A DNA stretch of 64,000 nucleotides. Source: Psammoneis japonica. Taxonomy: Eukaryota. Positions within the stretch are counted from its first letter, which is position 1. Each line of letters begins with the position of its first letter. The position numbers and the translations under genes are program-made. The stretch spans positions 1 through 64,000 of the forward strand of contig QPGO01000260.1 of the NCBI GenBank assembly GCA_008632985.1. Direction: 5' to 3'. Below are positions 16,566-64,000 of the stretch, piece after piece. The notes beneath the pieces are model-generated. The model did not search any database. It saw only the letters and a list, made by a program, of their open reading frames with translations, and was not told the DNA's origin.

Positions 16566-18529
16566 TCTTCCGCCAGAACTTTGCGAACATTTCTGGAAAT
16601 GAAAGTTGCCAACAATTTAACAATTTTTAATGTTAAGTTCATCCCGTCAGAAGCCCGACGTAGGCCTCCATAAGATCCAGTGCAAAGTTTAACGGTGTTC
16701 GCACCACGCGTGGCAACAGGCTCTCGAGTGGATTTGTGCTGGAGCTTGTGCACCCTGATGGACTTGTGAATCCTTGTCAGAGGGGCAGTGTGCGCGTGTG
16801 AGGAGTTCATGTGCAACGTCACCTGGTGGCACGGGGGGGACAGACGCCGGGCAAGGGTGGAACTTGCTGAGTCATGCAAACAACAGGAATCATTCGAAAA
16901 TGTCGCAAGAGTCGTGGTTGGCATTTTGCATTGTGAGGAAAAACACCAAATCGCGTGAAATGTGCACAATGTCATGCGAGAGGGTGATTGGAGCCAGTGG
17001 CTTTTCGGGAAATCAACTGAAATGTCATCTGACCAAAGGCATTTTGAGAAGTTGACATTCGAGTGCGGATGGGTGGACAGACTGAAAACAATTGTTTCTG
17101 GCAATCTTCTGCACAATTTCTGCGCAATGACTCTGAGAGCCGAGTGATTCCCATTGGGTGGAAAAAAGGATGGATTTCGAGTTGGGGTTGCATGGTTGAG
17201 ATTGCAGTTTGGCGGAGTGGCAGGTTGGTTGGTCAGCGAGCGATTTGGTGATCGCAAGGCTCAGGCGCTTTAAAGACCCCCCATTGTGATGGGGTTGAGG
17301 AGTGGCGGGTCAGGCCAAAGCATTTTGCGGATGTGGTTTGCCAGGTGGTGGTGGCGGCAGGAGGGAGGATGGCGGGTGGGGATTGTTGGGTGCAGGTGTG
17401 TGCGGCATGGGCAGCTGGGTGTTGAAAGGAGGATTCAGCAGTCCAGGGTGGGGCAGGGATGGGGTGGTCTTGGTTGGCACCAAAGAGAAGGCGGTGAGCA
17501 AAGCAGCCTGGGGCTCCCAGATGGTTGACGGCAAAGGGAGTGAGGCAGATTCCGGCATTGTCAAGGGTGGATGTGAGGGTTGCTTCATTTTGGGCCTTGC
17601 TGCAGTGCTGCCATGGGTGGGAACACCGCAGAAATCACACAGGTGCCATTTTTTTAGCAGTGGTCAACCTCTCTGCCCAAATGGACCATGGCGGTCGTTG
17701 ACGTCCTGACAAAAAACCCACTTGTCTTTCTTTGTGGGTGTGGGTGTGTGCCGTTGCATGCTGCATTGTCTGCACGCACACCACAGATTGTGGTGGCAGA
17801 GCGGCATGGCCACCGCACGGTGGTGACACGGACAACCATCACATTTGATTTCTCGTGCCATTTTTGGGGCTGTGGCGAGGTGCACAGACACTCTTTTTTT
17901 TTTTCAATTTGTCGCCACAACAGCGCATTGCACAAACTCACTTGTTGTTTGATGTGTTTTCCCCACGTGTCTGTTTCGTGTGGAATTCACAATTGATCAT
18001 CTTCACAAATGACTGGATGCATTTTTTAGCATGCCACACCGGCAATCCCAATTTTACAGCACTTTCGAGCTCTCCTGAAAAACAGTTCCACATGCCCATT
18101 GCAGGGAATTTGTCAATTTTTTAGGATGTCCCCACGACCTCTAATGTCCTCAATGATCATCCCATGAATCCGCACAACTCATTTGCACTGAACAACCCAT
18201 GCCACTCCAAAATCTAAGGGACACACTTTCAAATTTGGACGGACCACCCGACTCGTCTGGTGGGGCAACAATCCGAGATGCGAGCCAGCATGGCAAAATT
18301 TCCGTCACTGTGGAAAGTTGGATTTGTCCTGCGTTGTTAATTGCCTGATGCTAACTCTGCACGCCGGCGTGCAGACAACTGATGTTGTGCGTTAAACCAA
18401 GCTATGATCTTGCACGTCAATGCCTGAGTTGATTCATGCAACCCAATCTTGTCACCTGCCACGTGGTTTTTTTACCACGTGGTTTGTCCCACCCATTTTC
18501 ATGTCATTCGTTTTTGCAACATGAACAAT

Positions 18530-21500
18530 GGCGGCCCCCTTCGCTGTCGGAAATGATTGTCCCGTGTGCGGCAAACGTTTTCTCCCAACTGGTCTTCAAC
18601 ACCACCTAAGAACTTATCTTCCCTGCAAACTGTCCTTTTCTCAAAGCCTTCACGATTTCTTCCCGTCAATCCGACCCCGCTCATGGCAAACACCCCCAAA
18701 CTGGAGAGTTGCATGAACAAGTGGATGTTGCTGCCTCTTCTACCCCCGGCTCTCCTCCATTTTAATTTGTTGCCGCACGCCCCGATGCCAACGCAGTTCC
18801 AACTCCACAAGGTTGCACCCGACACAATCCCCGGCCGTTGCGCTCCAATCGTGCACCTTCACATGTCCCAGAGCTGCGGGGTTCCCACAACAACTCCATT
18901 CTTCCCCACATTCTTGATGATGCATCAGACTGCCAGTTTCCAGACCCCGAAGAATTTGTTTCCGACACCGAGGGTTCCACTGCCAATGTTGCAGAATCTG
19001 GCCCTTTTCCACACTCGATCAAGTTGGACGCCTCTCCGCGGACGAGGACCTCGTGGTGCCCAAAGCACACAACTGGGAAACGACATCCATGGTCTGCACA
19101 TTTAATTTGTGCCGCTCCAAGGGTGTCCCAATCAGCGCAACAGATGAATTGCTGAGAACTGTGCAGCAGGAATTCTCTGGTGGTGGGTTGTCCAGTCACT
19201 GGACAAATCCCCTCTTCTCGAACTTTCCTGGTCCAAGCTCAAGTTGATGTTGCCAGCATTGTGCCCCCGGTGCTGCAGCGCATTCCTCTCAAGTCTGTCT
19301 CTGTCGTCAACCAATTCAAGAACAACCCGCCTCAGGAGCTCTCTCCCGGCATCCCTGTGTGCGACTTTTCCCTCCAACTGCAGGATCTGTTCGACGATCC
19401 CCCATTTGCCGATCTTTCAAATCTTGATGTTCCTCCCGATTCACGTTGGTCTCAGGTGCTCTCCAGTGAACCCATGTTGGACGAGAATGGTGATTGGAAA
19501 CTTTGTGACGACGCCAAAATGAAGGACGGTGAAACTTGCAGCAACTGTTGTTGTGGCTGCATTTTTCCCGCCGTCCCCGGTTCCTTTCATGTGTTCGTTT
19601 TGCATCACACCGACAAAACTGGGAAAGGACAGGTCACACCTCATTTGATGGAGCCATTTGTTTTCTCTGCAACTCTCATCAAGTCATGTGCCCGCCGTTG
19701 TTTTGAAGCATGGCGTCCTCTCGGTTTCGTTCCGAAGCACACAGGTTGCAAAACAAAGAATCCCATTTTCGGGATGAACGTCAGAAATTACCACCGAATT
19801 TCATCTGTCCTTCTGGCATCTGTGGTTCAAGCGCAAGAATCACCTCCCATCTGCCAAGTCCAACTGGGCGATCAGCATTGTTGCAAGCTCATTGTTGTCC
19901 ACAGCGCAACATTGTTGGGCGATGCTGTTAATGCCACACAAGCAACCGGCCGTGTTTCTGGTCGCGAAAACTCCCGCCGCATCAGTCATGCCTGTCATGC
20001 TTCCTGGACCAACAGCAATGAACCTTTACATTGCTGCAGGTGCTTTTCCCAAGAACTGATGGAGCGTTTGACTGTTGCAGCACTTGGACCACCACCTGGT
20101 TCCACCGACAGTCCATGGCATCTTCATGTCGAATCACAAATCAACACAGTGATGTCTAAGATGAAAGCCGATTCAATCCGTTCCAAGGCACGCAGTGCAG
20201 TTGTCCGGCACATGAACATTTGTTCCACCATGCTTCACAAGGTGTTTGGCCAACACACGGTTGACAATTCATTCTTTCGTCTTTGGATGGGAGACAATCG
20301 TCAGGGTGTGTTTGGGTTTGCGTCCCCTGATCCAATGCACACATTCCAAGGCGGCATGGTCCCTCAGATGCTCTCTGTCATTCTTGACGATTTGCCCGAT
20401 TCCTCCCAATCCCGACTGAATGATTTGGCAAACCACACATTTGGATCTCAGTGGTGCAGACCAGGTCAGAGATCTAACTTTCCACCTGGCAAATGGATTT
20501 TGCACCTTGTCTGGTTTGACCTGCAACCAAATGATGGGAGAGCTGTTTGCGTTGGCACTGATGGGTCAGGGACGGAGCACACTCTGTCTTCGTTGCCATC
20601 CTGATTTTGACAAGACAAAGAAAAAACGTGCTTCTAATTTCGATGATCAGCCTTCAGAATGTGAGTGCGAAGAAGAATGTGATGCAAAGAAGAAGACAAT
20701 GATGGTTGTGCACACGAAGAAGGTGAATCCGTTTCCGACAACCACAACGATTCGCTTGATGACAACGATGAGTCCGCACATGATTCAGACAAACAGCAAC
20801 CAAATTCGCAAGATGACGAGGAAGAGAGTGACGAGGAGGAAGTTTCCCCTGGGGATCAACCACTGCAGGCCTCCACATCCTTGGTTGACAAGCCTTGCGC
20901 TGACGAAGAATGCAGCCACGACAACCCTGCCCACAACGAACATCTGGAGGATCAACGTCGCCGTCACGGGCTCATGCACATGTGTCCTTACACGACGCAG
21001 CTGACAACGGCTCAAGCTCACATTTGTCACAACATTGTGTGGATGCAAACAAGAAATGTCAACCTGGATCGTCAATTCTGCATCCCAAACCATGCCGATT
21101 CCTCCGTTTCTGAGATTTTTAGATGCTGTGTGGATCAACGCCAGTCCCTTCACACAAAGGCAAATTCTCATGACCCACCATTCATTCATTCAGAAATTGA
21201 AAAGGAGTTGCCTCTTGCATTCCGCCAAAGGCTGAACAGCCTGTGCGACGACCTGGAGCCGGCTTGTTGTTCAGTGGACTGTGATGATGTGGAACACTTG
21301 TTGCTGTTGCTCAACAAATTGTTGTTGCTCCACTCCTTCTACAGCTGCAGTTCTTCCCTGTGCTCACACACCAACCAAGCCGACATTGAATGTCGCCCAG
21401 TGCTTCTGATGTTCGAGCTGCGCAGCATGATCAATCGTGGCAAAGGCACACATGGATGGAAAACATCCAAGTTCCACGACCTGCTGCACTTGATCGCCGC

Positions 21501-22500
21501 TCTTTGTTGGTTGGGTGTGTTTTCTGGATGGGATGCCGCCGCCGGCGAGTCTGGTCTAAAGAAATGGGCAAAGCTTCCAAGTTGGACCTGCCAAGCATTG
21601 CAAGGTGAAGAAGAGTTCACACGTCAACTTGCAAGCCGACTGTGCAAGCAGAGTCTTTTGGAGAGAGCCAACGATTTGATTGTCCGTCCACATGCAACTC
21701 AGGATTCGTCAGTGGCAGCATCATTGCACCACGACCTGGGTCATGCCATGTTCACAGTCGACCGAGTCGAAAAAACATGCTGCGAGTGCACCGGCACCTT
21801 GGAAATGAAAAGGGAACAAAGCGCTCATCTAGAGCTGGATGTTGTTGATTTTTTGTGCCGTCGCAACCAGTGGGGAATCCGGCGCAGGCATGTTGTTGTG
21901 TGTTCCGAGTCAAATCTACAGGCCAAACACGAGTTGCGCTTTCAGGCGCACCCGAATTGCCGCAAGGGTGGGCGATGGCATGACTTTGCACGTGCCAAAT
22001 GCAGAAATGACGATGGAACCAACAGCTTGTTTCCAATGCAACTGCATGGTTTTGTTCTGAGTGACGACAAAAAAGAAGTTGTTGCTTTTGGGAGAACTTG
22101 TCTGAAGCAAAGCGCCATGGAAACGAAAATGAGCAAGAACGGTTTGTTTCAGCATTGGCGAATGGAGAGCACGTCACCCAAATGCACCTTCAGGTGTTGT
22201 CAGAAGAACATGCTCATTGGCGGCAGAATGGGTGTTGCATTGCCCAAGATGGCTCTTGTTGACCGGGGCAAATGACGAAAGAAAGGCCGGAAACGAAAAA
22301 AAGCTGTTGAAAACAATTTAGAGGAAAGCATCAATGTGACCAATTTGTCCCTGTCCGGCTCCATGTCTGATCGAGAGACGTCTGACGACAAGATTTTGTT
22401 TGTCCTTGACATGAAGAATGAGTGGCCGGAGCTTTTTCTAATGGCGGCTTGCACTCGGGAGGCAGGGGTGCATGTGAAGTTTGACAATGCATTGCAACAA
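18530..22500 (+). pseudogene. Decayed Plavaka-like DNA transposase
   Basis: N-terminal C2H2-like CPVCGKRF...HH, then F...LQDLF.D, TDKT, EPFVFS, WRPLGFVP, RNYHR, LLGDA, DPMHT..GG, KFH.LLH, GESGLK.WAK.P and F.AHPNCR.G..WHDFA (expected AHPNYR..WYD). Frameshifted. Family assignment is from recalled motifs. Confidence 0.7.
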
Positions 22501-22511
22501 AGTGAGTCTCC

Positions 22512-25105
22512 TCACATGATTTTCCGGAATTCTGTCAACGTTTTCTGGCACAATTCCACAAGGTTTGAACATGACCACACACTCTCCGGGTCGGTTGTGT
22601 GATCGCATTTTGCAACAAAATCCTCTGGTTTGCACCATTTGTCGACCAAGAAAAATTCGATCCGATGTTTGAATCCGTGTGTCTTGGCAGCAGCAGTGCA
22701 CAATTCTTTGCATCTCATCGGCAAAAAGACTGTGCCATCGTCGTGGAGGAAAACAAAGTCCTCTTTCAAACCATGTTTCCTTGGACAGTGCAGGTGACAT
22801 GACAGCTGGTCCATGCACGCCATGGTCACTGACATTTTGTTGTTGCGCATCAGCTGCCATGCTGCCTCACATGTCTTCCGTGCCTCATCTAATTCAATTC
22901 CACCGGAATGTTCAACGGGAGAACTCTCTGCCACCGTGTCAACCAGGTGCCGATAGAATCCGTTTTTATCATCATCACTCAAAGCAGCAAATGTGGCATT
23001 CTCAGCTGGACAATCACCAAGGTGGGCACCAGATTGGATGTGCAAATTTCCTCTTGTGCTTCCAAGCTGCACTGCTTTCCTTGTTTTTTCCGGTGCGCCC
23101 ATTTTCTTGCTTTTTTTCCCGTCCATTGTTAACTGACGAGCCGTTTCCTTTGCTTCTTCCATCAAGTTCAGATTGCACAGCACCCTGTCTTGTTCTTCCA
23201 AAAAACTGATGAACAGATGTGGACAATCTTCTGTTTCGGGTGTCCCATCATGCAGGCTCTTGCTGACGTTCTGACACCTGGGATGGGAGGAACAGTGCAC
23301 CTTGCTGAGGTCACCACCACATTTTGCTTCTTTCACCAATTGTGTGATGCACTTGAACATCTTGCCCCTCAGTTTGGTCAAAGACTCGAGTGTTCTCTCC
23401 CAAGCTGGCAAGGAGATTGCGGTTGACACAGACCGAACTGGCAGAGGTGTTCCATTGCATTCCCTGCAAACCAACCCCTTGTGCTCTGTGATGTGTCGGA
23501 GGCAAACAGCTCTGTCGTGGCACTCACAAAACAGAATCCACAGCCACGCGATGCACCCGAGCATTGTCGTTTGAGTCTTGCCCTCCTTCATCTTGACGCA
23601 CCTTCCTTTGCTGCAGTCGGATGTGACGTTTGTTTCCGCCAAAGACAGAATCTTTTCCGCAGCCTTGGCTGTTTCTTCCTGGTTGCTGAGTGTGTGCAGG
23701 TCAATGGTGTTGGAATGTTCCTTTGGTGCTGCAATCAAGGACTCCGCACAAGGACAACTGACGTTTAACTCAAGCTTCTTCAATTGGCTGTCAACGATCG
23801 ACCTTGTGCATGACAAGTGAGTGAAGCAGCTGTTTCTTGCAGGCACACAATTCTCCAATGGCTTGTCAACATTTTTTGGGACAGAAACACGGACCAGTCC
23901 TCAACCAAGTGCGAGGCAAGTGCAATGTGATCGTGGTCAATGTCCTTCCCATTGCTTGCATCTGAATGCCAAGTCGCTGCTCCAATTGAGGAGGTGTGTG
24001 CGTGGAACTCTCTTAGAATGGCCCACAGATCATCTGGGCAGTTCAGCCATCTTTGACACTTTGAGGCGACCCTTCGTCGGAGGGAGCTTGTCACACCCTG
24101 TTGCGATCGTTGCGTTCCATCCAGCATCCCACAGCAAATGCCATGCACCACCATTGCAGAGAGCTGGAGCATCCACCTGCACAACCTTGGAAATGTGCAG
24201 TCGGTTGCTCCCAGTGGGCATCCTGGCATTGCCACTCCCACACCACAGCTTCTGCTCCATTTCCCACCAGCTGCATTGATCCCACCGTCCATGGAGCAAA
24301 ACTTTCTGCATTTGTCTGCTTTTGAAAGGGTGTCATGCTCATCGCCGAGTCCAGTGCGCAATCCATCCTCGACGACACTTGCAGTTTGAGACAAAAGGTC
24401 CTCATTTGCAATCTCCAGTTGCAATTGAAGCATTTGAAAAAGGGTTTGCCATCTGCAGGAGTGTCAATTCCAGCGACATTGTGTTCGTTGACGACAATTG
24501 GATCCCTTGGGTGCAACGAGGAATGAGGATGATTGCACGAATTTGGCATCACACGAACGTCACCGCCGAGATTTGATGCCAGTTTCTTCGCAGACTCCAA
24601 TCCAGTCACCACGTGCCAGTTCACGTGCAAACGGAAATGCACTTGAATCTGGCATCCACGCTTTTTCTCGACAAACAACAGCTGTCTTTTCCACGAAGTT
24701 TTGATCTTTTGCAGATTGGCAAGATCGAAATCGGGGAACAACTGGGCTTGTGACTTCTTCTCATCTGTTGGGAAGAACGAGGTCGTTCCCCAACACTTGT
24801 CATCTTGCCCATTCGGGGTGTGGTTGGTGCCATTTAACCCAACAACTGAAATTTTTTTCCTTCAGAAGGTTGGCCTTGCTGATTTCCCCAGTCTTGCACT
24901 TGCTCCTTCTGCCCATGCGACCGCAGTTTGCATCAATGGCATCTAAAGCTGCGTCTAGCTTGTGGCCCCGGTCTACGAGAGACTTGGCATTCCAAGTCTT
25001 TTGCAGCGGCATCTGACAGCACATGGGACACATTGCACAGCTTTCTAGATGTTCAAAGGAACATCTTGCGCGAACCTTTCCGTCAACACCATCGACTGCC
25101 TGCAA
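22512..25105 (-). pseudogene. Decayed hypothetical gene(s), probably transposon cargo
   Basis: Long minus-strand ORFs 22512-23858, 23780-24433, 24091-24741 and 24800-25105 have protein-like composition apart from Tyr loss. They converge on the transposase. Confidence 0.4.
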
Positions 25106-25178
25106 CGAGTTTGCAACCTCACAAGCGGCAGTGACGCGGTTGCTTCTTCGTGGAGTGAGAGCGATGCAGTTGATTTTT

Positions 25179-26530
25179 TCAACGCCATGTGGGTGTGAAA
25201 CAACTGGTTCGTGTGTTTTGTCTGAGACAAAGTCCTTGATCTAGAGATCGACAAAATCCAAGAAGTGAGCGACAACCAAAACGAGAAGCCAGCACAAAAA
25301 ATCTAAACGAAACATGCACCTCCGACAATGTCACTCCACAATCTTTGCAACAAGGACAAATGCCCACCTGCTTTCCGCGGTGTGGGTGTGCAACTGCAGA
25401 TGGATGGAAAAGAGGCATTTCCTCCAACTGATCATTTCGCAGGCACCTGACAATCCACACTTTGCCAACCACAGCCCAGTTCTCACAAAGGCAATGGGCC
25501 ACCGTCGCATCGACAGGCAGAAACACATTGCCAACGTCAGACAGCTTTTGACGGAAGTGAGTTGACGATTGATTGAAAAACGAATCTGTCAAGATTCTGT
25601 TGTTGAAATGAGATTTGAACCCAATGTCCATCGACATTGAGTCATGGACACATTCCTGGGAAGCCCAATTTTCGCAACAATTAAGAGCAAGTACATCGAC
25701 GACCATGTGATTCGGATTTGAAGCAACTGTTTGACGGCAGTCAACAGTGTGGACATTGAATCCGTTTTTGACTGGTGCCTTGCATGCTGCGGTGTCTCTG
25801 CACTCCTGGGAGGATGCGCCAGTCGTCCCGTCACCGAAGACAAGGCCCACAACCAATGTGTTGTTGTTGACAACGTCATTCCCGGTGGTGCAGACATTGG
25901 GCAAGTTGGATGATTCGTTGTGACATCCAAAGCAATGGTTGTCCAACACCACTTGATCAGCAAACAGTGGCTCATCGCCTCCAAAGCGGCCCAAGCAAAG
26001 TCGAAAGTCTGCTGACATGTCCTTTGTTGATTTGATCAAAAGTCCCTCCACACAGGAACCAACAGAATTGCCACAAACCTCGTCAGCAGGTGTGCTCATT
26101 TCCAGTGAGTCATCGTCTTGCACGCGCTTCCTTTTCCCAGCAAGAGATTTTCTCCTTGCATCAGCCTGTCTTTGTCGGGTTGTCTGCGATGACAATTCCT
26201 CTGCAACCTCCCTCAATGCAGATGACAGATGTTTGTTGTTGCACACCATTGAACAGTCATGCAGCGCTCTTGGCCAGATGACCAAAGCTTGTCCCGTTGG
26301 AAGTGTGTCGAGAAATCCATCAGCATCGAGAGTGCGGAATAAATGATTGATGCCAGCGGGAGACAGTCCAACAGAAGCCACCTTCTTGTGTGTCAAGGTC
26401 CTCTTGCTGACACACTGACTGGGTTGGAAACACACACATTGCCGAGAATGTTTGTTGTTTTGGTGATCAAGTCCTGTTAGAATGGGTGGCAGACGATGAA
26501 TGTGGTGATGGTTGGAACATGACAACGACA
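25179..26530 (-). pseudogene. Decayed gene with a possible Rossmann/methyltransferase-like domain
   Basis: LVVGLVFG...RD...GFNVHTVD...H...(Y>H)DSMSMD...LSDVGNVFLP follows the alternating strand/helix order of a SAM-dependent fold. Weak, motif-level evidence only. Confidence 0.3.
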
Positions 26531-29500: not shown

Positions 29501-29619
29501 ATGTGTTTGTGACCATTTGACTTGCACGTGCTTTCCTTTTGCATGTCGTGCTTTTGTTCTGCAGGCTTTGCATCATTGCGGGGCATCCCAGAGACACTTT
29601 CGCTTGTCAAGAATGTTGT

Positions 29620-48033: not shown

Positions 48034-48272
48034 AAGCAAATCCAGCTGCCGAATGGCTCAGCTGCTCACAGCACTGGTGTGACAACAATCTGATGATCCA
48101 AAGATGCTCTCAGGCCTGTTGCAACTGCTCGTAACAAGTGAGCGCCATTGGAGGGAAAACCAACGCTTCCCTCCGATGACACGTCACAACGGTTGGCTCA
48201 GCACCAGCCGTTGCCAACAGCACTCTAACAACAGCACTCTAACTAAATCCGATGCATCGGATTTCTTTCGGT
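48034..48272 (-). repeat. 3' LTR, truncated at its distal end
   Basis: Aligns with 54430-54640. Preceded on the minus strand by a purine-rich caaggggac (PPT-like) at ~48272-48281. Confidence 0.8.
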
Positions 48273-48438
48273 CCCCTTGAAATGTTTCTAACAAGCCAAG
48301 GGCGTGCTTGACAGGCACAATTCAACCAATGCAATCAACCACATTGACACTCCGTGCTGGCCATGGTGTAAACCCTCACTGGGGAAGAAAATCACCACCG
48401 ACCCGATTCCCAAAATCCAAACCCCATTTGCCGCCAAT

Positions 48439-51400: not shown

Positions 51401-52690
51401 NNNNNNNNNNNNNNNNNNNNNNNNNNNNNNNNNNNNNNNNNNNNNNNNNNNNNNNNNNNNNNNNNNNNNNNNNNNNNNNNNNNNNNNNNNNNNNNNNNNN
51501 NNNNNNNNNNNNNNNNNNNNNNNNNNNNNNNNNNNNNNNNNNNNNNNNNNNNNNNNNNNNNNNNNNNNNNNNNNNNNNNNNNNNNNNNNNNNNNNNNNNN
51601 NNNNNNNNNNNNNNNNNNNNNNNNNNNNNNNNNNNNNNNNNNNNNNNNNNNNNNNNNNNNNGCTTCTGGGTGGTCTTCTTCAATGTTGATGCCGCTTGTT
51701 TCAATCCAATGCCCCAGCGCTCGCTCAAGTCAACAGCAGTGACAGAACTGCGCCGTTCCTTGGACATGAAAGTCTTCGGGGATGGTGCGTCTTCAAGTTC
51801 CAAGCCGATCGTCTCAGTGGCCGCGATCTGAACATCCGCTTCCACCTGGACTGACGCTGTCAATCTTGATTGAAGTTGGTCCACACCACAGACAAGTCTC
51901 CTGTCACAACAGTCCCCGGTCTGAGGGTTGCCACAATCAGGATCCTGACCAAACGCGTGGCTGGGGCTTGACCGAACACTTGCGACCGACCGAATCAACT
52001 CCATTTCCTCCTCCACAGAACGTCAAGGTCTGGACTGCTTAAACTTGACGTGTGTGGATCCCAAGCTTGTTGGGAGGTCAACTGGATGTGTGGGCACTCT
52101 TGGAGCTCCCTGTCAGTGGGGGTCCGAGCAGCCGCAACGACACCAGTTCCCATCAACTCAAGAGGGCAGCACAAATCCCTTGTCCTCCACAAGGACATCC
52201 AACGGCGACTCGGAACAGGGGTCATCCTGAACCGTGATGCCGAAATGCCTCATCTGATTCGGGTTGAGGAGAGAATTCTCCATGGAATCTGCCATCCAAA
52301 GCCCCTCATGGAAGCCAGGACACCGTTGCTCCCGTCGCCGGTGAGGTCCACGCAGTGGCCGCCGATGCGATTGGGACACTCTTGATGGCTTCGCATCCCT
52401 CGTCACAAGGATGCGTGCATTCTCTTCCAGTGTAACCCAAGAGGGTAAAGTTCGAACTAAAAACAGCAGTGTCAGCATGTGAGTCCAATTCTAGTCGTCC
52501 ATGCTTTACCTGATCGTCTGTTCGGACGTGAGTGGCACGCGTGTCAGTCCGTGCCGCAGAGACTCGTCGTGTAGAAGCTGCAATTTCACAAATGCAACGA
52601 CAGCCCCCATGAACCAACGTTTCTTTCAAACGACACGGCTGGCCCCCGCCCCAATGAAGCAGCCACAATGCAACTGGATGAGGCTGCAAA
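48439..52690 (-). pseudogene. Copia pol (protease-integrase-RT-RNase H) with frameshifts and Tyr>Cys/His substitutions
   Basis: ORFs 52306-52689, 52158-52478, 48708-52016 and 48439-48777 carry the motifs listed for the element. Confidence 0.9.
51163..51661. other. Assembly gap (N run)
   Basis: Run of N characters. Confidence 1.
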
Positions 52691-52709
52691 GCAGGGTCCA
52701 GCTCAGGAG

Positions 52710-54133
52710 TCAGCTGCGTCGCTGACGCTCCTGGCGTCCCCCAAATGCGTCTCCGGCATTGTTGCCGCCTTGACCGCCAGTTCCTGTGCCAACGTTTCCG
52801 GAATCGGTGCCGGCAGTGGTCTCCAAGGAAGAAATGGTGTGGCTTGCTTGCTCAAGCTGGGACGTCAGCTTCCGATTCTTCTTTTCAAGCAATCTGACGG
52901 ATGCAGCGCGGCGCTTTGGGTCACCCGGCCTCTTCTTGAGTCCCAAACACACACGCTCATCCATGACCTTCTTCTTGTCTTCCTTGCTCAATTGATGCCA
53001 ATTTTTATGAAATCCGGTGTCAATGGACCCATCTTCTTTGCAAATGGAATCACCTTCCTTGCTGACGCCGGACGCAACAGAGGAAATCGCACGACGGTGC
53101 GCAACTGTTTCCGGGAGAGTGGCGACTTTAGCGGCAAGATGGTTGCACGCTGCAGCAAAACTGATCCCTCCTCCAAACTCATTCTGCGCCTTCAGGGTCT
53201 CTGCTGCGTTCTGCAACTGCTGGTGTTGCACCTTGTCGAACAGCAATCGCAGCTTCTGAGCCTCCGTCTTGGGTTCATCATTCTCTTCGAAAATGTTGGG
53301 CATCTCCTGAAGCTTGTTCACGAACGTTTCGAACGTCATGGAGCGTTCACTCCTGCAGTGCAGAGTGTTTTCCAAACGCTCAGCTTCCGAGATGCGACGG
53401 GCAGCATTGCCCTCGCCCTGATGGTGGTTCTCCAAAGATTCGCAGCAGAGACGACCGTTCTGGCTGTTGTGGTGCTCTTTGATCCACTGCTCGCTTGGGG
53501 CACCTTTCGTGAACAAAACGATTGGCTGGCTGGCGGCACGAGAATCAGCTTCAAAAAGCTGGACCCTCGAGTGGAGCGCATGCAACTGACTTCTGCATGA
53601 AAGTCTCATGCCCTTCAGGCTCGGGCTCCTCGTTCTCGCGTGTGACACAAATCAATGGAACGCCGTCGACTCCCAGCATCGTGCCAAGCATGTTCTTGAA
53701 AGCGGTGCTCCATTTTGCCCAGACCTTTTCACTCTCCAAGAGTCCAGGGGATGCCTCACGAGCAACAGACTTTGGATTGATCCCTCATCTGGCTGCGAAC
53801 ATCGGCCCTCGACAACGCAGCAGATAGTGCATCGAGAAAACGCGCCTGATCCAAACCGTCGATGGCAGGATTTTCACCAACGCGTTGGAAGTCATGCACC
53901 CAATGAACAAGGGACTTGAGGCGACGGGTGCGAGCCAATGCAAAGTGGAAACGCCCCTCAGCAGCAGTCCTCCTCGAGCAAGACTGCGCGAGCGTGTCGA
54001 TGTCCGATTCCTTCACATCGACGACATCATCAAACGCAGCGATGTCAGTCATGATCGCGTCACGCTGAGCAGGCAACTGGAAACCGATCCAAGCAAGGGC
54101 CGTTTCCATCGGGTTCGGGGGGTTTGCCGCCAT
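52710..54133 (-). pseudogene. Copia gag, disrupted
   Basis: MAANPPNPMETAL.WIGF..., L.SLVHWV.DF.R, G..GVPL.CV.R (expected YV.R), LHCRSERSM.FE.F (expected Y). Confidence 0.8.
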
Positions 54134-54214
54134 GGCGAAACTTGAGTCATCACAGCATCATGAGACAAAGCAGTTGTGTCAGAAGAAGCACATCAAAACT
54201 TTGACGTTCACAAA

Positions 54215-54640
54215 ATCGCATTGACGACACGCGCAGGCCTCAAGAGTGCGGAGATGTGGCCTTGTCTCCCACTGCATTGCGCATGCACTGATGCGAAGGC
54301 ATCACTCAACGGCGAACACCCTCAGGTTGGTCGGCATTCGTTGTCAAAACCGTGCCATCGTGACACAACCGTCACAATCACGTTGTTCATCACCAAACCG
54401 CGGAGTGCGGACTGTGGCTCTGACAAAGCAAGCAAATCCAGCTGCCGAGTGGCTCAGCCACTCACAGCACTGGTGTGATGACAATCCAACAATCCAAAGA
54501 CACTCTTGGGTCTGTTGCAACTGCTCGCAACAAGTGAGCGCCATTGGAGGGAAAAACAATGCTTCCCTCCGATGACATGTCACAACGGTTGACTCAGCAC
54601 CAGCCGTTGCCAACAGCACTCTAACTAAATCCGACACATC
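54215..54640 (-). repeat. 5' LTR, lacking about 15 terminal bases; inner boundary approximate
   Basis: Shares agcaaatccagctgccga...cagcactctaactaaatccga with 48034-48255. Confidence 0.75.
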
Positions 54641-54808
54641 CATTTGCCCTTTTGAGGTGGTGGTGGTCCAGAGATTGCCTGGCATGCTTTTTGCACAGAA
54701 ACTGCCCCAAAAGCCATGCACATCAGAGCTTGCAATGTGGCAGCAATCACTTTCGTTGGTTTTTGCCATGCCGCTGCATTTTGTTTGTGTCATTCATTTG
54801 ACTGTGAT
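54641..54808 (-). repeat. ~165-bp inverted copy of 47757-47922 (and of ~59675-59842)
   Basis: ccatttgcccttttgaggtggtggtggtccagag...catttgactgtgatg is the reverse complement of catcacagtcaaatg...ccacctcaaagggcaaatgg. Confidence 0.9.
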
Positions 54809-57800
54809 GGATGCGCTTGTCTTCAACATCAAACAAATGGCCAAGTTTGTGGCACAATTGCACCTTTTGCCACTTGACGTTTTTGCAAATGTGCCTGTCC
54901 TGTGCAGTTCTCAAGACATTGCAGAATGTCAAAAGTTGTCAGACAGATCACTCAACAAGTGCACTGTAAAATGACACAACATGTCGCCAAAATCATGTGG
55001 AAATCCACGTGCCTGACATGCAACATGATTCAAAAACTGTCGTTGTCACAGTTCAGCAGCGCAAGGTCCCATTTTGCAGTGCACTTGCTGAGCAATCCTT
55101 CCAACAACTCTTGACATTTTTTGTTTCAGCGCAATTCTGCAATGTCTTGAGAGTCGTGCAGGGCAGGTGCACTTGCAAAAATGTCGAGTGGCAAGAGGCA
55201 CAATTTCACCACAAACTTGGCCATTTGTTTGATGTTGAAGACGGGTGCATCCATTGACCAACTTCTAGCACTGCAGAACACAGAGCCCCGCCTGGGGCTG
55301 GAATGCATCCATGGTGCATCAATGAGTGCCAAATTGATGCTCTGTTGTCTGGCGTTTTTTAAGTTGCAACAGGCCTGCACTGCAGTCTGCACATGTTCTT
55401 TGTCATTGTTGTCTTCTTTGCTGTCTTCATCTTCTTCCTTGTTGCCTCTGTTGCTTGGTTCATCCGTTTTCTCTTCATGGTCCTCATTGTCACCAGAAAG
55501 CTCTGTTGTTGCTTGCATTCTCATCTCCACCCCCGCTGGCTTTTCAGTGGTTTGGCTCTTTTTTCATTTCCCTCACTCTCCTTTTTCTTTCCATCAGCGT
55601 GCCATGTGTTGAGCTGCACACCCGGCTCACTTGCCCTGTCATCCTTCAACTCCTCAAGCAGGGCAGTGAATCGCTTCATTCCACCATCCTTCCAAGAGTC
55701 GCGCTGATGCAGTGGGTCTGTGTGCAAGGGCGCCAGTTTTGTTTCCTTCTCCTCCTCTTCACTCTCTTCTTCCTTTCCCTCCAGCTTGGATTTGTGCTCC
55801 CAAACCTTCCAGCAATTTTCCAATGCCAACAGCGCCAGTGCCTTGTTGCTTGCCATGGCCAGCTCCATGACCTTTGTGTTGCCCGACTCCACCACCCTTC
55901 TCCACATGGGATGCACGGCTGTTTTGACAACAAATTTTGTAGCGCGAAGGTCCTGTGCTCAGTCGTCAATCAGAGATTTGAGATTTTTGCACTCAAAAAA
56001 ATGGAAACAAGGCTTGCCGGAGACAGGGTCATTGAGGTCCTCACTGGCAATGATCTGATGCACAAACTCAACCATTGAAGCCATTGGCGAAATGTTCTGT
56101 GTCATCAAAATTGACATCATCAGGAAAGACAAAGGAGGGGTTGGGGTTGGCCTCCTCCGCTGATGGGGCACGTTGATCACTGTGGCCAGCCATCTGTTTG
56201 CGCGGAACATGCAGAAAGTGAGCAAATCACAACATCGCACACTCTGGTCAAGTTGATTTTGGGGAGAGGGTGTGCTGTTGAGAAATGTGCAGGAAATGGT
56301 GTGTGCAGAAAAAAGACTGAGAACACAGCAGAGAAACTGTCACAGAGTTCTGGAAAAAGGTGCGAAGCAACAAGGAAATGCGTGCACACACAGAGGTGAC
56401 TGGGCAGATGTGGACAGCATTGTGTGCTGTGACACATGAGGGGGGCAAAAACAAAAAAGCACAAACCAACACAAAAGCCAAATTGTCAAAGGCATGGAGC
56501 ATGGGTTGTCACCACCCAAAGCTTTGGTCACAAAACATTTGCAAATGTGAGTTGCTTGAGCATGAGCAATCAGCACAAATGGGCAAAATAAAATCCTCAT
56601 GAAAAGGTCAAACACCTTGCATTGTGAAAACAACATTCAAGCACTGGCGCCACAATCAAAAGAATGACACCAACAAAATGCAGCTGCGCGGCAAAAGCCA
56701 ATGAAAGTGATGGCCGCCACATTGTGGGCTCTGATGTGCTTGGCTTTTGGGCAGCTTCTGCGCAAAAAGCGTGCCAGGCAATCTCTGGACTGCCACCTCA
56801 AATGTCAAATGGCTCCAAACAAAGCTTTGACAAAGAATCTTGGCAGTTGTTGTTGATTTCACAGCACAAGTGCTCAGGTTCAAATTTTTCCTTTTTTGGG
56901 CTCAAACTTTCAATTTTGACCAACACGGGTTTGAGTTTGACTTTTGAACCCAATTGGGTCCAAAATTGCAGTTTTTGACCTGCCCCCAAAAAAGGGGGGC
57001 CTGCACTTCTCATGAGGTGGCAGGTGACCTGCTCACACATTGAGTCAGCTTCAACTGCACTTGAGCAACATCACTTCTGTTGCTTTGTGACTGACCTCAT
57101 GCACTGCCATTCATGCTGTGTATTTTGTTGAGGCTTTGTGTGTTTGCAGCAACTCAGCTTGCACGTGCTTTCCCTTTTCACATTGCTCTTTTGTTCTGCA
57201 GGCTCTGTGTTGTCGCGCGGTGTCCCAGAGACTCTTTTTCTTGTCAAGAATGTCATTTCTGCTGTGCAATGGCCATGACAATTCAAAAACAAATGCGGCG
57301 GCTTGGTGCTGTGATGTCTCAAACTGAGCAAGCTCTCAAGAGCTCAAACACATCATTGCACAGTTTTGACAACAGCTCTTCCCACCTCCACATGGCAATG
57401 CAGAGTTTGACTCAGCAGACCAGTGCATCATGGTGGCTTCAATGGTGTGGATCATTCTGTTTGGCTGCACAGCAGCTTGCAACCCAGAAACATGTGACTT
57501 GTTTGCCCCACTTGTCAGCAAGCCAGCACAACAAATTTAGAGGGTGAAGGACAAGACAAATGATGTGCAGTTGTGTCAAGTCTCAGAAGTGGCTCAAGAG
57601 TGCAAGCCAACAAGAATCGCTGGCTTCTTTGCAAATGGCAAGCAAGTGCTGAGTGCAATTTTTGGGGGCACCACGTCTCCATTGTTCTTCTGGAGCAAAC
57701 AGCAAATGGTGTTGATTTGGCTGATGCAGCCAACTTGCACGTGCACCTTGACAATCTGTCGTGCTGCATTCTGACATTTTGGCAAAGAAAAGGAAGCTCG

Positions 57801-59950
57801 AGGAACTCTGGGGTGGGTGACCAAGACACACCCCAGCTCCAGGTGGGACCTTGTTCCACTGAACTGTGACATCAATGGTTTTTTGGATCACACAGCATGT
57901 CGTGCACGCAGAATTGCACAAGACTTTTGTGAAATTTTGTGTCATTTTGTGGTGCACTTGTTGAGCAATCCATCCAACAACTTTTGACATTTTTGTCATG
58001 CAGCGCGATTCTGCAATGTCTTGAGAATCACACGGGGCAGGCGCATCTGCAAAAACATTGAGTGGCAAGAGGGTCAATTGTGCCACAAACTTGGCTGTTC
58101 ATTTGATGTTGAAGATGAATGTGTCTGTTGATTAAATTCTTACACTGCGGAGCTCGCACGCAGAACTCTGCAGGCCCGATGTCACACGGAGTCCCGCCGG
58201 TGCACCCCAATTTGTTCTCTCCACAAACTGCTTTTTGGATGCACACAGTGCAATCATGCTCCTGAACTTGGGCCCAAATGGCTCCACTCTGAAGCCATTG
58301 GTGAGATGTTCTGTGTTGTTGAAATTGACATCATCAGGAAAGACAAAGGAGGGGTCAGGGTCAACCTCCTCCACTTGTGGGGCAAAGTCATTGACCGGCC
58401 ACCATGGCCAGTTGTCTGTTGGCGGAACATGCAGAAAGTGCATGAATCACAACAGCCCACACTCTGGTCAAATTGATTTTGGGGAGACGGCGTGCTTTTG
58501 TGAAATGTGCAGGAAATGGCATGTGCAGAAAAAACACTGAGAACACAGAAAACGCACCAACAGAGAGCTCCAGAAACAAGTGTGGCGCGACAAGGAAATG
58601 TGCGCACACATGGAGGTGACTGGGCAGACATGGGCAGCAGCATGTGGTGTGACACACAAGGGGGTGAAAACAAAAAAGCACAAACCAGCTTGAAAGCCAA
58701 ATTGTCAAAGGCATGGAGCATGGGTTGTCACGACCCAAAGCTTCTTTGACCACATGACACTTGCAAATGTGAGTTGCTTGAGCATGAACAACCAACACAA
58801 ATGGACAAAAAAAATCTGTGCCAAAAGGTCAAACACCTTGCGCCATGAAAAGCTTCTTTGACCACATTGCATTTGCAAATGTGAGTTGCTTGAGCATGAA
58901 CAACCAACGCAAATGGGCAAAAAAAATCTGTGCGAAAAGGTCAAACACCTTGTGCCATGAAAAGAACGTTCAAGTGTTGGCATCACAGTCAAAAGAATGA
59001 CACAAACAAAATGCAATGGCACAGCAAAAATCAATGAAAGTGATTGCCGCCAAATTGCAGGCTCTCATGTGCTTGGCTTTTGGGCAGCTTCTGTGCAAAA
59101 AGCATGCCGGGCAATCTCTGGACCACCGCCTCAAAGGTCAAATGGCTTCAAACAAAGCTTTGACAAAGAAACTTGGCAGCTGCTGTTGGTTTTGCAGCGT
59201 CAGTGCTCGGATTCAAATTTTTCCTTTTTTGGGTTCAAACTTTCAATTTCAACCAACTTGGGTTTCAAGCTTGAATTTTGAACCCAGTTGGGTCCAAAAT
59301 TGCAGTTTTTGACCCGCCCCGAAAAAGGAAGGCACACACTTCTCACGAGGCAGCAGGCGACCTGTGCACATTTCCTGTCAGTTTCAGCTGCACTTGAGCA
59401 GACACACCAGACAATCTTTGGACCACCGCCTCAAAGGTCACATGGCTCCAAACAAAGCTTTGACAAAGAAACTTGGCAGTTGTTGTTCATTTCGCAGCGT
59501 CAGTGCTCGGGTTCAATTTCTTCCCTTTTTGGGCTCAAACTTTCAATTTCAACCAACTTGGGTTTTAAGTTTGAATTTTGAACCCAGCTGGGTCCAAAAC
59601 AGCAGCTTTCAACCCAACCCAAAGCTTGAAAAGGTCAAACACCTTGCACTGTGAAAACAATGTTCAAGTGCTGGCATCACAGTCAAATGAATGACACAAA
59701 CAAAATGCAGCGGCATGGCAAAAACCAATGAAAGTGATTGCTGCCACATTGCAAGCTCTGATGTGCGTGGCTTTTGGGCAGTTTCTGTGCAAAAAGCATG
59801 CCAGGCAATCTCTGGACCACCACCACCTCAAAGGGCAAATGGCTCAAAACAAAGCTTTGACAAAGAAACTTGGCAGTTGCTGTTGGTTTTGCAGCATCAG
59901 AGCTCAGGTTCAAATTTTTTCTTTTTTGGGTTCAAACTTTCAATTTCAAC
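54806..59950 (+). repeat. Segmental duplication copy 2
   Basis: Collinear with 42887-48033. Confidence 0.95.
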
Positions 59951-62900
59951 CAACTTGGGTTTTAAATTTGAATTTTGAACCCAGCTGGGCCCGCAACTGC
60001 AGTTTTCAACCCGCCCCAAAAAAGGAAGGCACTTGCTTCTCATGAGGCGGCAGGTGACCTGCGCACATTTCCTGCCAGCTTCAGCTGCACTTGAGCAGAC
60101 ACGCCGCAGTTCTTGGCCCACTCATTTTCTGCGTGGCCTGGCACAACCCAAATCCATGCCGGCTTGGCACATTTTGCCCTGCAGAAGAGTTTTTGGGAGT
60201 GTTTTCTGGCTTGCGACACCAGACAACATGCAAAGTGACAAGGACAACAAGGTCTTGCCAGTTTCAAAAATGTGGTTGTTTCTGAGTTGCTTTGCAATGT
60301 GCTCTTGATGAAGCGCTGCACATTGTGGCACAAGGCATGTGATGAGCTCAAGAGCGCACAGGCTCACATGAGTGGCTGAGGGCAAAAAATGGTGTTGAAG
60401 GTTTGCATTGACAACATTTCCTCTGTTGTGTTGTGACTGACCTCATGCACTGCCACTCATGCTGTGTGTTTCTCTGAGGCTTTGTGTGCTCACATCCGAC
60501 TGACTTGTGCGCACTTTCTTTTTCTGTGCTGCGCTTTTGTTCTGCAGGCTCTGCACTGTTGTGAGGTGTCCCAGAGACACTTTTTTCTCTGCCAGCTCAT
60601 CATGGTGGGTGATGGCGTTTCACTGATTTCAAAAATGCAGTTGTTTCTGAGGTGCTTTGCAGTGCACTCTCAATGGAGCATCACATGTCATGGCACAAGG
60701 CATGTGACAAGCTTGAGAGCTCACAGGCCCGCATCAGCAGCTGACAATGAAAAAGCACACTGAAGGCTTGAATTGACAACATTGCTTTTGTTGTGTTGCA
60801 ACCAACCTCATGCACTGCCACACATGCTGTGTGCTTTGTTGGGGCTTTGTCTGTTTGCACCCATCAACTTGCATGTGCTCCCCCTTTCCAGGCTGCTCTT
60901 TTGCTCTGCAGGCTCTGTGTTGTGAACAGTGATTTCTCTTTCCACATGGACACTTTTTCTCATCAAGAATGCTGTTTCTGCAGCACATCCCAGAGACACT
61001 TTCTCTCATCAAGAATGTCATTTCTGCAGTGCAACATCCACGACAATTCAAGAACAAGGCCAAGTCACAGACACAGCATCAGGAAGAGTTCACAACAAAC
61101 ATGGCAACTTGGAGCTGTGATGTCTTAAGCTGAGCAAGCTCTCAAGAGCTCAAACACATCATCGCACAGTTTTGACAACAGCTCTCTCCTCCCCACCTCC
61201 ACACGGCAAAAAAAATCTGTGCCAAAAGGTCAAACACCTTGCGCCATGAAAAGCTTCTTTGACCACATTGCATTTGCAAATGTGAGTTGCTTGAGCATGA
61301 ACAACCAATGCAAATGGGCAAAAAAAATCTGTGCGAAAAGGTCAAACACCTTGTGCCATGAAAAGAACGTTCAAGTGTTGGCATCACAGTCAAAAGAATG
61401 ACACAAACAAAATGCAATGGCGGAACAAAAACCAACGAAAGTGATTGCCGCCACATTGTGGGCTCTGATGTGCTTGGCTCTTGGGCAGTTTCTGCAGAAA
61501 AAGTGTGCCAGGCAATCTCTGGACCGCCGCCTCTGAGGTCAAATGGCTCCAAAAAAAGCTTTGACAAAGGAACTTGGCAGCTGTTGTTGACTTCTCAGCA
61601 TCAGTGCTTGGGTTCAAATTTTTCCTTTTTTGGGCTCAAACGTTCAACTTCAACCAACTTGGGTTTCAAACTTGAACTTTGAACCCAGCTGGGGCCAAAA
61701 ATGCAGCTTTTGACCTGCAGCCTCAGTGGCGGGGTTCAATTTTTTCTTTTTTGGGTTCAAACTTTCAACTTTGACCAGCTTGGGTTGCAAACTTGAGCTT
61801 TGAACCCAGCTGGGTCCAAAATTGCAGTTTTCGACCCGACCCAAAGCTTTGGTCACAAAACACTTGCAAGTGCGAGTTGCTTGAGCATGAATGATCAGGG
61901 CAAATGAAAAAGAAAATCCTCGTGAAAAGGTCAGACACCTTGCACCATGAAAAGAATGTCCAAGTGTTGGGGTCACAGTCAAAAGAGCAACAAAAACAAA
62001 TCATCCATTGCATTGCGGGTCTTTCAACGCAATGAAAAACACAGACAGCACAATGACAATGACATCGCAACACTCACACAAGTCTTGTTGGTGTTGCAAA
62101 ACATTTGCATTTGGACAAATCTGTGCTTTTGGTGGTGAAAGATTGACCGCAATTCAGGGGCCGTGCAAAAATTGTGCAAATGTCATTTTTGTGCACGATT
62201 TGGCTCACATGCGGCTGGAACACGTCTGAACCCGATTGGGTCCAAAACTGCAATTTTTGACCAGCCTCAAATGAGGGAGGCATGTGTTTCTCACAAGGCA
62301 AGCTTTCCCTGGCCTGATGATGAAGTGCTGCTCTTTCTGTCTTTGTGCTGCACCCTTGCAGGCATGTGCATGCTTGGCTCTTGGACAGTTTCTTCACAAA
62401 AAGCACACCAGGCAATCACTGGACCACCCTTGTGAAGGTCAAACAGCTCCAAATGGGGCTTTGACAAAGAAACTTGGCAATTGTTGTCAACTTTGCAGTG
62501 TTGGTGTTTGGGTTCAAATCATTTCCTTTTTTGGGTTCAAACCTTCAACTTCAACCAACTTGGGTTTTAAACTTGGATTTTGGCCCCAATTGGGTCCAAA
62601 ATTGCAGTTTTTGACCTGCCCAGAAAGAGGGAGGCACACGCTTCTCACGAGGCAGCAGGCAATCTGTGCACATTTCCCGCCAGCTTGAGCTGCACTTGAG
62701 TGGGCGTGCCACAGTTCTCAGCCCGCTCATTTTCTGCGTGGCCTGGCACAACCCAAATCTGTGCAGGTTCAGCACATTTTGCCCTGTGGAACAGTTTTTG
62801 GGAGTGTTTTCTGGGTTGCAACGGACAACAGCATTTTGCCAACTTCAACAGTGCAGTTGTTTCTGAGGCACTTTGTGGTGTGCTCTCAATGGAACATCGC

Positions 62901-64000
62901 ACGCCACAGCACAAGGTGTGTGACAAGCTCAAGAGTGCACAGGTTCACATGGGCAGCTGATGGCAAAAAATCATGTTGAAGGTTCGTGCTGACAATGTCG
63001 CTTCTGTTGTGTCACAACCAACCTCATGCACTGCCATTCATGCTGTGTGTTTTGTTGAGTTTTTGAATGTTTGGAGCCATTTGACTTGCGTGTGCTTCCC
63101 CTTTCTGCACCGCCCTTTTGTTCTGCAGGCTCTGCATTGTCGTGAGACATCCCAGAGACAGTTTCTCTCATCAAGAATGTCATTTCTGCAGCGCAATGGC
63201 CACGGCAATTCAAGGACAAGGCCAAGTCACAGACACAGCATCAAGAAGAGTTCACAACAAATGCAGCAACTTGGCGCCATGATGTCTTGATCTGAGCAAG
63301 CTCTCAAGAGCTCAAACACATCATCGCACAGTTTTGACAACAGCTCTCCCCGCCTCCACATGGCGATGCAGCTCCAATGGCGCAGACTGCTTCTTTTGGC
63401 TGTGCAGGAACTCTCACCCAGAAATGTGCGACTCATTTGCCCCATTGGTTCACAAGCCAATGCAACAAAATTGGAGAGTGAAGGACGAGACAGATGCGCA
63501 GTTGTGTCAAGTCTTGCAAGCATGTCAAAAGTGCAAGCCAACAAGATTTGTCAGCTTTGCAACTCAGCAAGTGAGTGTTGAGTGCAACCTGTGGGGGCAC
63601 CACGTCTCCATTGTTCTTCCAGAGCAAACAGCAAATGGCATTGATTTGGCTGACACAGCCAACATGCGTGCGTGCCTTGACAGTCTGTGGCGCTGGATTC
63701 TGAGATTGTGGAACAAAAAGAGGCACTTGCACTTGCCTCACTCCATCACATCAGAAATGCACAAGCTTTCCATGGCCCTTTTGGAGCAGCCAGGCAAGCA
63801 AAAGAGGAGCTGTGGAAAGATGCGGAAGACTCCATTTTGATGCATTGTCATCTGGCGGTGTCATCATTTGTGATGAAGTGCCGTGCTTTGTGGCTTTATG
63901 CTGCATCTGTGCAGGAATGCATGTTGTTGGCTCTTGGGCAGCTTCTGTGCAAAAAGTGCACCAGGCGATCTCTGGACTGCCCTCTTGAAGGTCAAATGGC
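59951..64000 (+). repeat. Continuation of the mosaic repeat array
   Basis: Same modules and orientation as 26980-48033. Confidence 0.9.

Follow-up and report, generated by a model that had tools for sequence, protein, structure and literature searches.

We analyzed a 64-kb window of Psammoneis japonica (the window being the whole stretch examined, positions 1 to 64,000 of contig QPGO01000260.1) and found that a unique, gene-bearing part with ordinary TpA content is followed by a domain of repeated DNA in which TpA has almost disappeared and CpA and TpG are in excess. The pattern is far beyond chance expectation. It is very probably the footprint of a process that acts at the DNA level after insertion of the elements, affects both strands, converts T:A to C:G with a preference for TAY (Y, pyrimidine; R, purine), and is confined to repeated DNA. 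As the whole explanation, we favour on balance a host process that mutates TpA in repeated, presumably silenced DNA via a putative DNA adenine deaminase of the ADAT/TadA kind.

Dinucleotide counts in the two parts of the window revealed a TpA observed-to-expected ratio (o/e) of 0.57 (609 TA) in positions 1-16670 versus 0.05 (155 TA) in positions 16671-64000. In the second part, the o/e values are 1.75 for CA, 1.68 for TG, and 0.48 for CG, and the other dinucleotides made of A and T are undepleted (0.81 for AT, about 1.3 for AA and TT). The G+C content is equal across both parts (0.49 and 0.48, respectively). These counts agree with the initial annotation of the window, which had described TpA as frequent in the first 16.67 kb and nearly absent over the next 47 kb, with AA, TT, and AT remaining abundant. 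The TA o/e does not exceed 0.22 in any 1-kb bin from position 17001 on, and the TA density is 36.5/kb in the unique part versus 1.5-5.5/kb across the depleted segments. The only domain boundary inside the window is sharp: normal spacing ends with the TAs at 16661, 16671, and 16690, after which no TA is found until 17271. The edge at about 16690 lies approximately 40 bases beyond the end (16649) of a spliced transcript.

To compare the contig with reads, two runs of one public sample were used, of which run X1 behaves as accurate-read DNA and run X2 as RNA; both the read-contig comparison and the copy number estimates cover positions 13000-32999. The word-based contigs of X1, the longest of which is 315 kb, have a depth of 51-77 on the unique flank, which was taken as the single-copy level, versus a word depth of at least 328 in each bin of 16335-32999. 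Thus, all TA-poor DNA examined is multi-copy. The initial annotation had proposed that an undescribed system targets repeats. The restriction to repeats stands, as the loss is confined to a delimited region of multi-copy DNA beside an unaffected single-copy, expressed region; the part concerning an undescribed system is refuted (see the last section). On the same segment, 999 X1 contigs that are at least 99% alike reproduce the TA-poor sequence. Over these 20 kb, X1 differs from the contig by G>A at 150 places and by C>T at 149 places, many of them contributed by other copies, whereas about 1000 would be expected had TA stood at these sites.

The two parts of the window and the elements of the depleted domain are as follows (ORF, open reading frame; LTR, long terminal repeat).

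1-16690: unique gene-bearing flank with ordinary TpA, serving as internal control (TA o/e 0.57; protein-kinase exons, RRS1, spliced transcript)
16691-64000: TpA-depleted, CA/TG-enriched domain that continues past the window end (155 TA in 47.3 kb)
18000-18800: island of partial depletion (14 TA, 17.5/kb)
19156-26687: multi-copy coding element or elements, family unclassified (four long ORFs, X1 word depth 330-1500)
19156-20601 (+), 20683-22272 (+), 22515-23900 (-), and 25182-26687 (-): open frames of the preceding element or elements
27246-48032, resuming at 54805-64000: old tandem and dispersed repeat array (222 self-BLAST pairs, 71-92% identity)
42887-48032 (+): copy 1 of a 5.1-kb duplicate (partner at 54805-59951; the pair brackets the Copia element; 97.65% identity over 5155 columns)
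48033-54625 (-): Copia-type LTR retrotransposon (RVT_2 match, E 3.9e-13)
48033-48229 and 54429-54625: LTRs of the Copia element, 197 bp each
48708-51161 (-): Copia pol ORF with the RVT_2 domain
51163-51661: assembly gap of 499 N inside the Copia element

The Pfam scan of ORFs in the depleted part gave a sole match, RVT_2 in 48708-51161 (-); the labels "Plavaka-like" and "Tc1-like" are without Pfam support, as none of the ORFs at 19-27 kb has a Pfam match and neither do their relatives P0241 and P0242. In amino acid composition, the four long ORFs of this segment have 0-0.4% tyrosine, 4.6-7.6% cysteine, and 4.2-5.9% histidine. In the old array, the TA o/e is 0.01-0.07 and the CpG o/e is 0.10-0.50. 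The island at 18000-18800 coincides with the peak of X1 word depth within 17-27 kb (4686, in the bin 17669-18335), and all of its 14 TAs have a 5' pyrimidine (9 YTAR, 5 YTAY, and 0 RTA). It could be a more recent insertion of a high-copy element on which the process is still incomplete.

Direction of the change in the window and elsewhere

The direction of the change was determined from coding sequence. Replacement of TAY by TGY or CAY turns tyrosine into cysteine or histidine, so that cysteine and histidine at conserved tyrosine columns mark the change of TA to TG or CA. The Copia pol ORF was aligned with 60 of the 120 listed homologues, and columns with tyrosine in at least 80% of sequences were taken as tyrosine columns; placement of the N-terminal Copia fragments in the alignment was unreliable, and counts from them were not used. 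At the 23 conserved tyrosine columns, the window has cysteine in 10, histidine in 6, tyrosine in 4, phenylalanine in 2, and valine in 1, and the remaining 19 residue types are retained at 65-94%. The tyrosine content of the window Copia pol is 0.86% versus 2.7-4.5% in all 120 listed homologues. At the DNA level, the surplus of TG and CA in the Copia element balances its deficit of TA.

The same replacement is seen in an unrelated element. The ORF at 20683-22272 retains none of the 10 tyrosines of its nearest relative, P0241, which are replaced by histidine (3), cysteine (3), phenylalanine (2), lysine (1), and leucine (1). Thus, the direction claimed in the initial annotation was recovered in both the Copia element and a second ORF, and all eleven peptide strings with cysteine or histidine that it had quoted were found at Copia or ORF coordinates.

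For occurrence beyond the window, we used two comparison sets: 80 related metagenome Copia loci and the best 150 representative proteins related to one of these loci, L058. The TA o/e of the 80 loci ranges from 0.27 to 0.94 (median, 0.65), and only L058 is depleted. Within L058 (positions 1-6075), the TA o/e is 0.27 overall; it is 0.56 over the first 500 bases and 0.04-0.5 within the element, so that the contig apparently spans an element border. L058 encodes an open frame of 1404 amino acids with 0.43% tyrosine, and at 29 tyrosine columns it has cysteine in 13, histidine in 11, and tyrosine in 4. It shares with the window Copia only four short matches at about 65-72% DNA identity and therefore represents a different family. 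Replacements of tyrosine by cysteine or histidine, which correspond to A:T>G:C transitions, account for 16 of 23 columns in the window Copia, 6 of 10 in the second ORF, and 24 of 29 in L058. Among the 150 representative proteins, five have 0-0.7% tyrosine, with cysteine or histidine at 4 of 4, 12 of 13, 3 of 3, 11 of 14, and 3 of 4 conserved tyrosine columns, whereas four control proteins retain most of their tyrosines.

Another related Copia locus, L074 (positions 1-4250), has a CpG o/e of 0.01, a TA o/e of 0.47, and a TG/CA o/e of 1.51. It is a case of extreme ordinary methylation-type CpG decay and as such a contrast to the TpA signature.

Timing, site preference, and CpG decay

The two LTRs of one insertion are identical at the time of integration. 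Those of the window Copia now differ at 19 of 197 positions, which comprise six two-base sites with TG in one copy and CA in the other, one TA/CA site, two CG/TG sites, and four other differences. The TA/CA difference noticed in the initial annotation (ctcgtaac versus ctcgcaac) is present, as cgTAa at 48132 and cgCAa at 54528. Two of the eight CpG sites have changed, each in one copy, which amounts to 2 of 16 CpG copies; thus, the six TG/CA sites are not derived from CpG and represent independent hits on ancestral TA. As the LTRs started out identical and now carry TG opposite CA, the changes arose in chromosomal DNA after integration and not in RNA before it, in agreement with the timing that the initial annotation had proposed. 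The tally of changes in the LTR pair is 13 of 16 for visible TA copies, 2 of 16 for CpG copies, and 4 differences at about 165 other positions. In this one LTR pair, with its small numbers, TpA loss outpaces CpG decay about 10 fold and the background about 100 fold.

The Copia interior gives the same ranking. It contains 33 TA versus 301 expected (0.11), yet its CpG o/e is 0.88; thus, the two processes are separable and the loss of TpA is the faster one. CpG in this young element is nearly intact, and therefore CpG decay does not explain the TpA loss.

The old array carries both layers. In the young 5.1-kb duplicate pair, the 104 mismatched positions include 51 differences of CG versus CA or TG, 5 sites with TG in one copy and CA in the other, and 5 differences of TA versus TG or CA. 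Counted by site, the few remaining TAs and the CpGs are polymorphic in similar proportions, with 6 of 14 TA sites (8 shared) and 56 of 125 CpG sites (69 shared). Where copies of an array family differ by TG and CA, CG is retained in some copy at 20 sites, TA at 2, and neither at 40-42. Of the variants in other genomic copies, 40 of 662 were listed, of which the 34 in the depleted part correspond to 28 events, with 11 CpG polymorphisms, 3 TG/CA sites, and 2 TA polymorphisms, a sample too small to carry weight. CpG>TpG/CpA decay with CpG depletion is present in the window as a layer separate from TpA loss. The CpG differences of the duplicate pair are lopsided (35 CG/CA versus 16 CG/TG), a possible sign that CpG decay affects the strands unequally; the TpA process shows no such asymmetry.

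The surviving TAs reveal the site rule. YTAR accounts for 98 of the 155 survivors (42 TTAA, 44 TTAG and CTAA, and 12 CTAG), and relative to the unique flank TTAA persists at 58% of its density, whereas ATAT and ATAC are gone. When 184 kb from unmutated Copia ORFs was taken as the reference for the window Copia and L058, survival was 0.05-0.07 for RTAY and 0.20-0.58 for YTAR. The products follow the same rule, with RCA and TGY enriched 1.7-2.1 fold and YCA and TGR enriched 1.2-1.3 fold. The process prefers the A of T-A-Y, whose partner on the opposite strand is the T of R-T-A, and YTAR sites, TTAA among them, are the most refractory.

Both strands are hit, as the TG/CA skew along the domain stays between -0.14 and +0.15, which supports the action at the DNA level that the initial annotation had suggested. 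No consistent strand bias of the TpA loss was found. Surviving TAs favour a 3' purine in the Copia element and a 5' pyrimidine in older DNA, and the survivor and product patterns disagree when set against the Copia baseline.

The coding consequence follows from the genetic code. Enumeration of all contexts revealed that the change of TA to TG or CA turns no sense codon into a stop codon and removes TAA and TAG. The loss of these two stop codons leaves many long stop-free stretches, with 205 of at least 95 amino acids in the depleted 47 kb. Thus, gene callers would accept many spurious or dead ORFs in hypermutated DNA, for which a tyrosine content below 1% is a quick flag.

Proposed mechanism and competing explanations

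In the mechanism that we propose, a host process would act on chromosomal DNA once repeats have been inserted and would convert the T:A pair of TpA to C:G, yielding TG or CA according to the strand hit. Its action would be limited to repeated, presumably silenced DNA and would stop sharply at the adjoining expressed unique gene. As no stop codon is ever created, elements would be disabled by missense changes, chiefly of tyrosine to cysteine or histidine, with long open frames kept. We infer that the process is enzymatic and linked to silencing. As CpG decay of the 5-methylcytosine (5mC) type is also seen in this domain, targeting would rely on a silencing mark common to the TpA process and CpG methylation.

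For the enzyme class, the candidate that we tentatively favour is an adenine deaminase of the ADAT/TadA kind that would work on DNA and turn A into inosine, which is read as G. The natural tRNA substrate of ADAT/TadA has U before the edited A (U33-A34), and the requirement for a 5' T together with the TAY preference appears to resemble this site.

Oxidation of thymine ranks second among the explanations and is rather unlikely, though not to be neglected. According to it, a dioxygenase of the TET/JBP type makes 5-hydroxymethyluracil (5hmU) or 5-formyluracil (5fU) at TpA in silenced repeats, and T>C results from mispairing with G at replication or from misrepair. The R-T-A and T-A-Y contexts describe the same site, so that the flanks fit either chemistry equally. 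On the other hand, 5hmU itself pairs well with A. A change of TC to CC is not seen (o/e in the unique part versus the depleted part: TC, 1.24 versus 1.02; CC, 0.92 versus 0.83), and a dinoflagellate host is not indicated, the four skips of the main RNA contig all being GT..AG. In dinoflagellates, 5hmU of Amphidinium carterae is described as made by a TET/JBP homologue, enriched on repeats, and helping to silence transposons, and the same source cites older work on Crypthecodinium with a preference of 5hmU for TA and TC (PMC11572971). 5fU is described as being read as C or pairing with G (PMC6100112, PMC2673420). At the same time, the account of a base-resolution map in Breviolum gives no sequence preference for 5hmU (PMC11071213).

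Passive causes (selection against TpA/UpA, GC-biased gene conversion, or a general skew of mutation in heterochromatin that replicates late) would draw on the mild TpA deficit seen everywhere (0.57 in the unique part, median 0.65 in the 80 Copia loci) and on the fact that heterochromatin often has its own mutation spectrum. They are highly unlikely. The G+C content is not raised, AT, AA, and TT are spared, about 95% of a single dinucleotide is lost under a flank rule, and 79 of the 80 related Copia loci are not depleted. Moreover, selection would be unable to act so strongly on dead non-coding repeats.

An artefact would consist of true TA carrying a modified base misread as TG or CA in heterochromatin, or of an assembly error. 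The assembly is indeed not error-free: it contains the 499-N gap, and both X1 and X2 show one extra base after 14350 and one after 14778 relative to the window. These three places indicate minor errors of the assembly or differences between alleles. However, the X1 contigs reproduce the TA-poor sequence without a mass of G>A or C>T changes, and such contigs would not be obtained from noisy long reads; with an artefact, the two LTRs would not read TG and CA, respectively, at what was a single ancestral site, nor would the mark turn up again in a metagenome contig unrelated to the window and in five other public proteins. In view of the X1 contigs, the LTR differences, and these further records, a base-calling artefact has only a very slim chance.

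Finally, ADAR-like A-to-I hyperediting of element double-stranded RNA, which reverse transcription would carry over into copies mutated before their arrival, would suit a window whose clearest case is a retrotransposon, and ADARs favour U before the edited A according to the Bigelowiella natans authors (bioRxiv 10.64898/2026.01.13.699255). It is nevertheless the least credible explanation, as the six LTR sites post-date integration, the strands are hit about equally, TpA is depleted just as much in unclassified elements and non-coding repeats of the array, and the domain stops at a fixed genomic boundary.

Several points weigh against the deaminase-based host process as the full account. Adenine deamination and thymine oxidation are inseparable by sequence, because both alter the same base pair. 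No de novo event is seen here, and the process is deduced from end states. Much of the CA/TG excess in the old array comes from ordinary 5mC-type CpG decay, a contribution overlooked in the initial annotation, and for this reason the direct evidence of polarity is limited to the Copia element, one further ORF, L058, and the five proteins. The platform of run X1 is not on record, X1 may be the read set of the assembly itself, and copy number was assessed only in the 20-kb segment given above. Repetition as the trigger is weakened by B. natans, where the main target is described as single copy, in distinction to the multi-copy targets here (bioRxiv 10.64898/2026.01.13.699255).

A broader proposal is bolder and correspondingly more speculative: TpA-directed DNA editing could be common among protists as an enzymatic genome defence, rather than peculiar to Bigelowiella, and could work alongside cytosine methylation on silenced repeats. 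The TAY rule would then point to a DNA-active relative of tRNA adenine deaminases, transposons would be disabled by missense changes that erase tyrosine, and the window, L058, and the five tyrosine-poor Copia proteins would be the fossil record of this defence.

Unique flank and comparison with known systems

The unique flank, which serves as the internal control, contains the following genes and transcript.

1471-3046 (-): protein-kinase exons (Pkinase Pfam matches)
4451-5824 (+): RRS1 gene (Pfam RRS1 matches)
13702-16649 (+): spliced transcript of run X2 (2405-base contig, four skips with GT..AG ends)

RRS1 is split at 5171-5261, between Pfam positions 72 and 73, by an in-frame stretch of about 90 bases with a stop codon, which is most simply explained as a short intron. 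Among the 120 matches listed for the RRS1 exon, there is no identical protein and no named fungal one; the best of them are environmental (up to 77% identity), and the named ones belong to oomycetes and a dinoflagellate (about 40%). Homologues of the Copia pol (at least 120 listed) are 55-64% identical, and the best named one is from the diatom Fragilaria crotonensis (57%). The fungal frame of the initial annotation is not supported by these matches. The host is probably a protist of the SAR type.

The plus strand under the spliced transcript has no ORF longer than 97 amino acids. Opposite to it, at 14291-15703 (-), lies an ORF of 471 amino acids with a normal tyrosine content (3.2%) and no Pfam match. 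The transcript may be antisense or non-coding over a single-copy, possibly transposase-derived gene adjoining the hypermutated domain. A separate 264-base X2 contig has a GT..CG skip at 13622-13728. Within the segment examined, the X2 cover ends at 16649, from which silence of the depleted part is not concluded.

To our knowledge, repeat-induced point mutation (RIP) was long the sole well-understood case of deliberate mutation of repeats by a cell, and it is fungal and changes C to T. RIP is an ascomycete process that depends on RID, DIM-2, and premeiotic sensing of duplications; its C:G>T:A changes, which fall mostly on CpA, give rise to TpA and to stop codons. The signature of the window resembles it in that dinucleotide-specific transitions arise in repeats after their origin, contrast sharply with adjacent genes, and inactivate transposons. 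The window departs from RIP in its mutational outcome and host: the direction is reversed with TpA removed, the G+C content is unchanged at 0.48-0.49, stop codons cannot arise, and the host is not a fungus, as seen from the RRS1 matches.

Editing by ADAR and APOBEC enzymes is likewise deaminase-driven hypermutation of selfish elements, and ADAR prefers U before the edited A. However, APOBEC gives C>T or G>A, and ADAR footprints are strand-specific, pre-integration, and found in retro-copies only. The window departs from such footprints with the six TG/CA sites of the LTR pair, the balanced skew, and the inclusion of non-retro repeats. CpG decay by deamination of 5mC occurs in the same domain and also yields CA and TG, but it cannot remove TpA. 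5hmU marking in dinoflagellates shares with our case an enzymatic modification of the T:A pair on transposons that is tied to silencing; it is described there as epigenetic, and the passages concerned report no mutational footprint (PMC11572971), whereas the process described here is known from its sequence footprint.

The closest counterpart is the system of B. natans, and the signature of the window matches the one measured there de novo. In mutation-accumulation lines of this alga, two integrated viral regions account for 231 of the 302 nuclear mutations; all but one of these 231 (230) were A>G or T>C, the GC-biased ones were all on TpA, and mutations arose at about 6e-7 per site per generation (bioRxiv 10.64898/2026.01.13.699255). 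The same preprint describes 124 TpA-poor, CpA- and TpG-rich clusters in the genome, reports an enrichment of the TpA-poor coding sequences for reverse-transcriptase and DDE domains, and proposes a genome defence via adenine deamination by an ADAT2-like enzyme. The claim of the initial annotation that the signature is undescribed is therefore overturned, as this preprint of 2026 reports the same TpA-only A:T>G:C hypermutation; apart from it, a full-text literature search found no description of TA>TG/CA hypermutation of repeats.

As far as the preprint text goes, the two cases share the change of TpA alone to TpG or CpA, the restriction to particular foreign or silent regions, and the long-term loss of TpA with a gain of CpA and TpG, and they differ in several respects (bioRxiv 10.64898/2026.01.13.699255). 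The targets in B. natans are integrated DNA of nucleocytoplasmic large DNA viruses (NCLDV) and virophages, whereas here they are a Copia element, unclassified multi-copy elements, and an array. The TpA o/e is 0.45 in the NCLDV region there versus 0.05 here. The strong preference of TAY over TAR found here has no counterpart stated in the preprint text. The events there were measured directly, whereas ours are inferred. The organism is a different one, since the window is not part of the B. natans reference and its RRS1 has no identical match (best, 77%).

What is new here is thus TpA hypermutation in another organism and on other targets, the kind having first been reported in 2026. A second system of deliberate repeat mutation, opposite in direction to RIP, had been reported only in that year, in one alga and without an enzyme. 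Our analysis adds a site rule, a ranking of rates relative to CpG decay, and evidence of wider occurrence; it indicates that transposons and satellite-like arrays are targeted as well as viral inserts and that near-saturation can be reached. The TAY flank preference could guide a biochemical search for the enzyme, and a natural DNA adenine editor would be of interest to base editing. For genome annotation, the lesson is that hypermutated elements keep long open frames and can be recognized by a near-absence of tyrosine.

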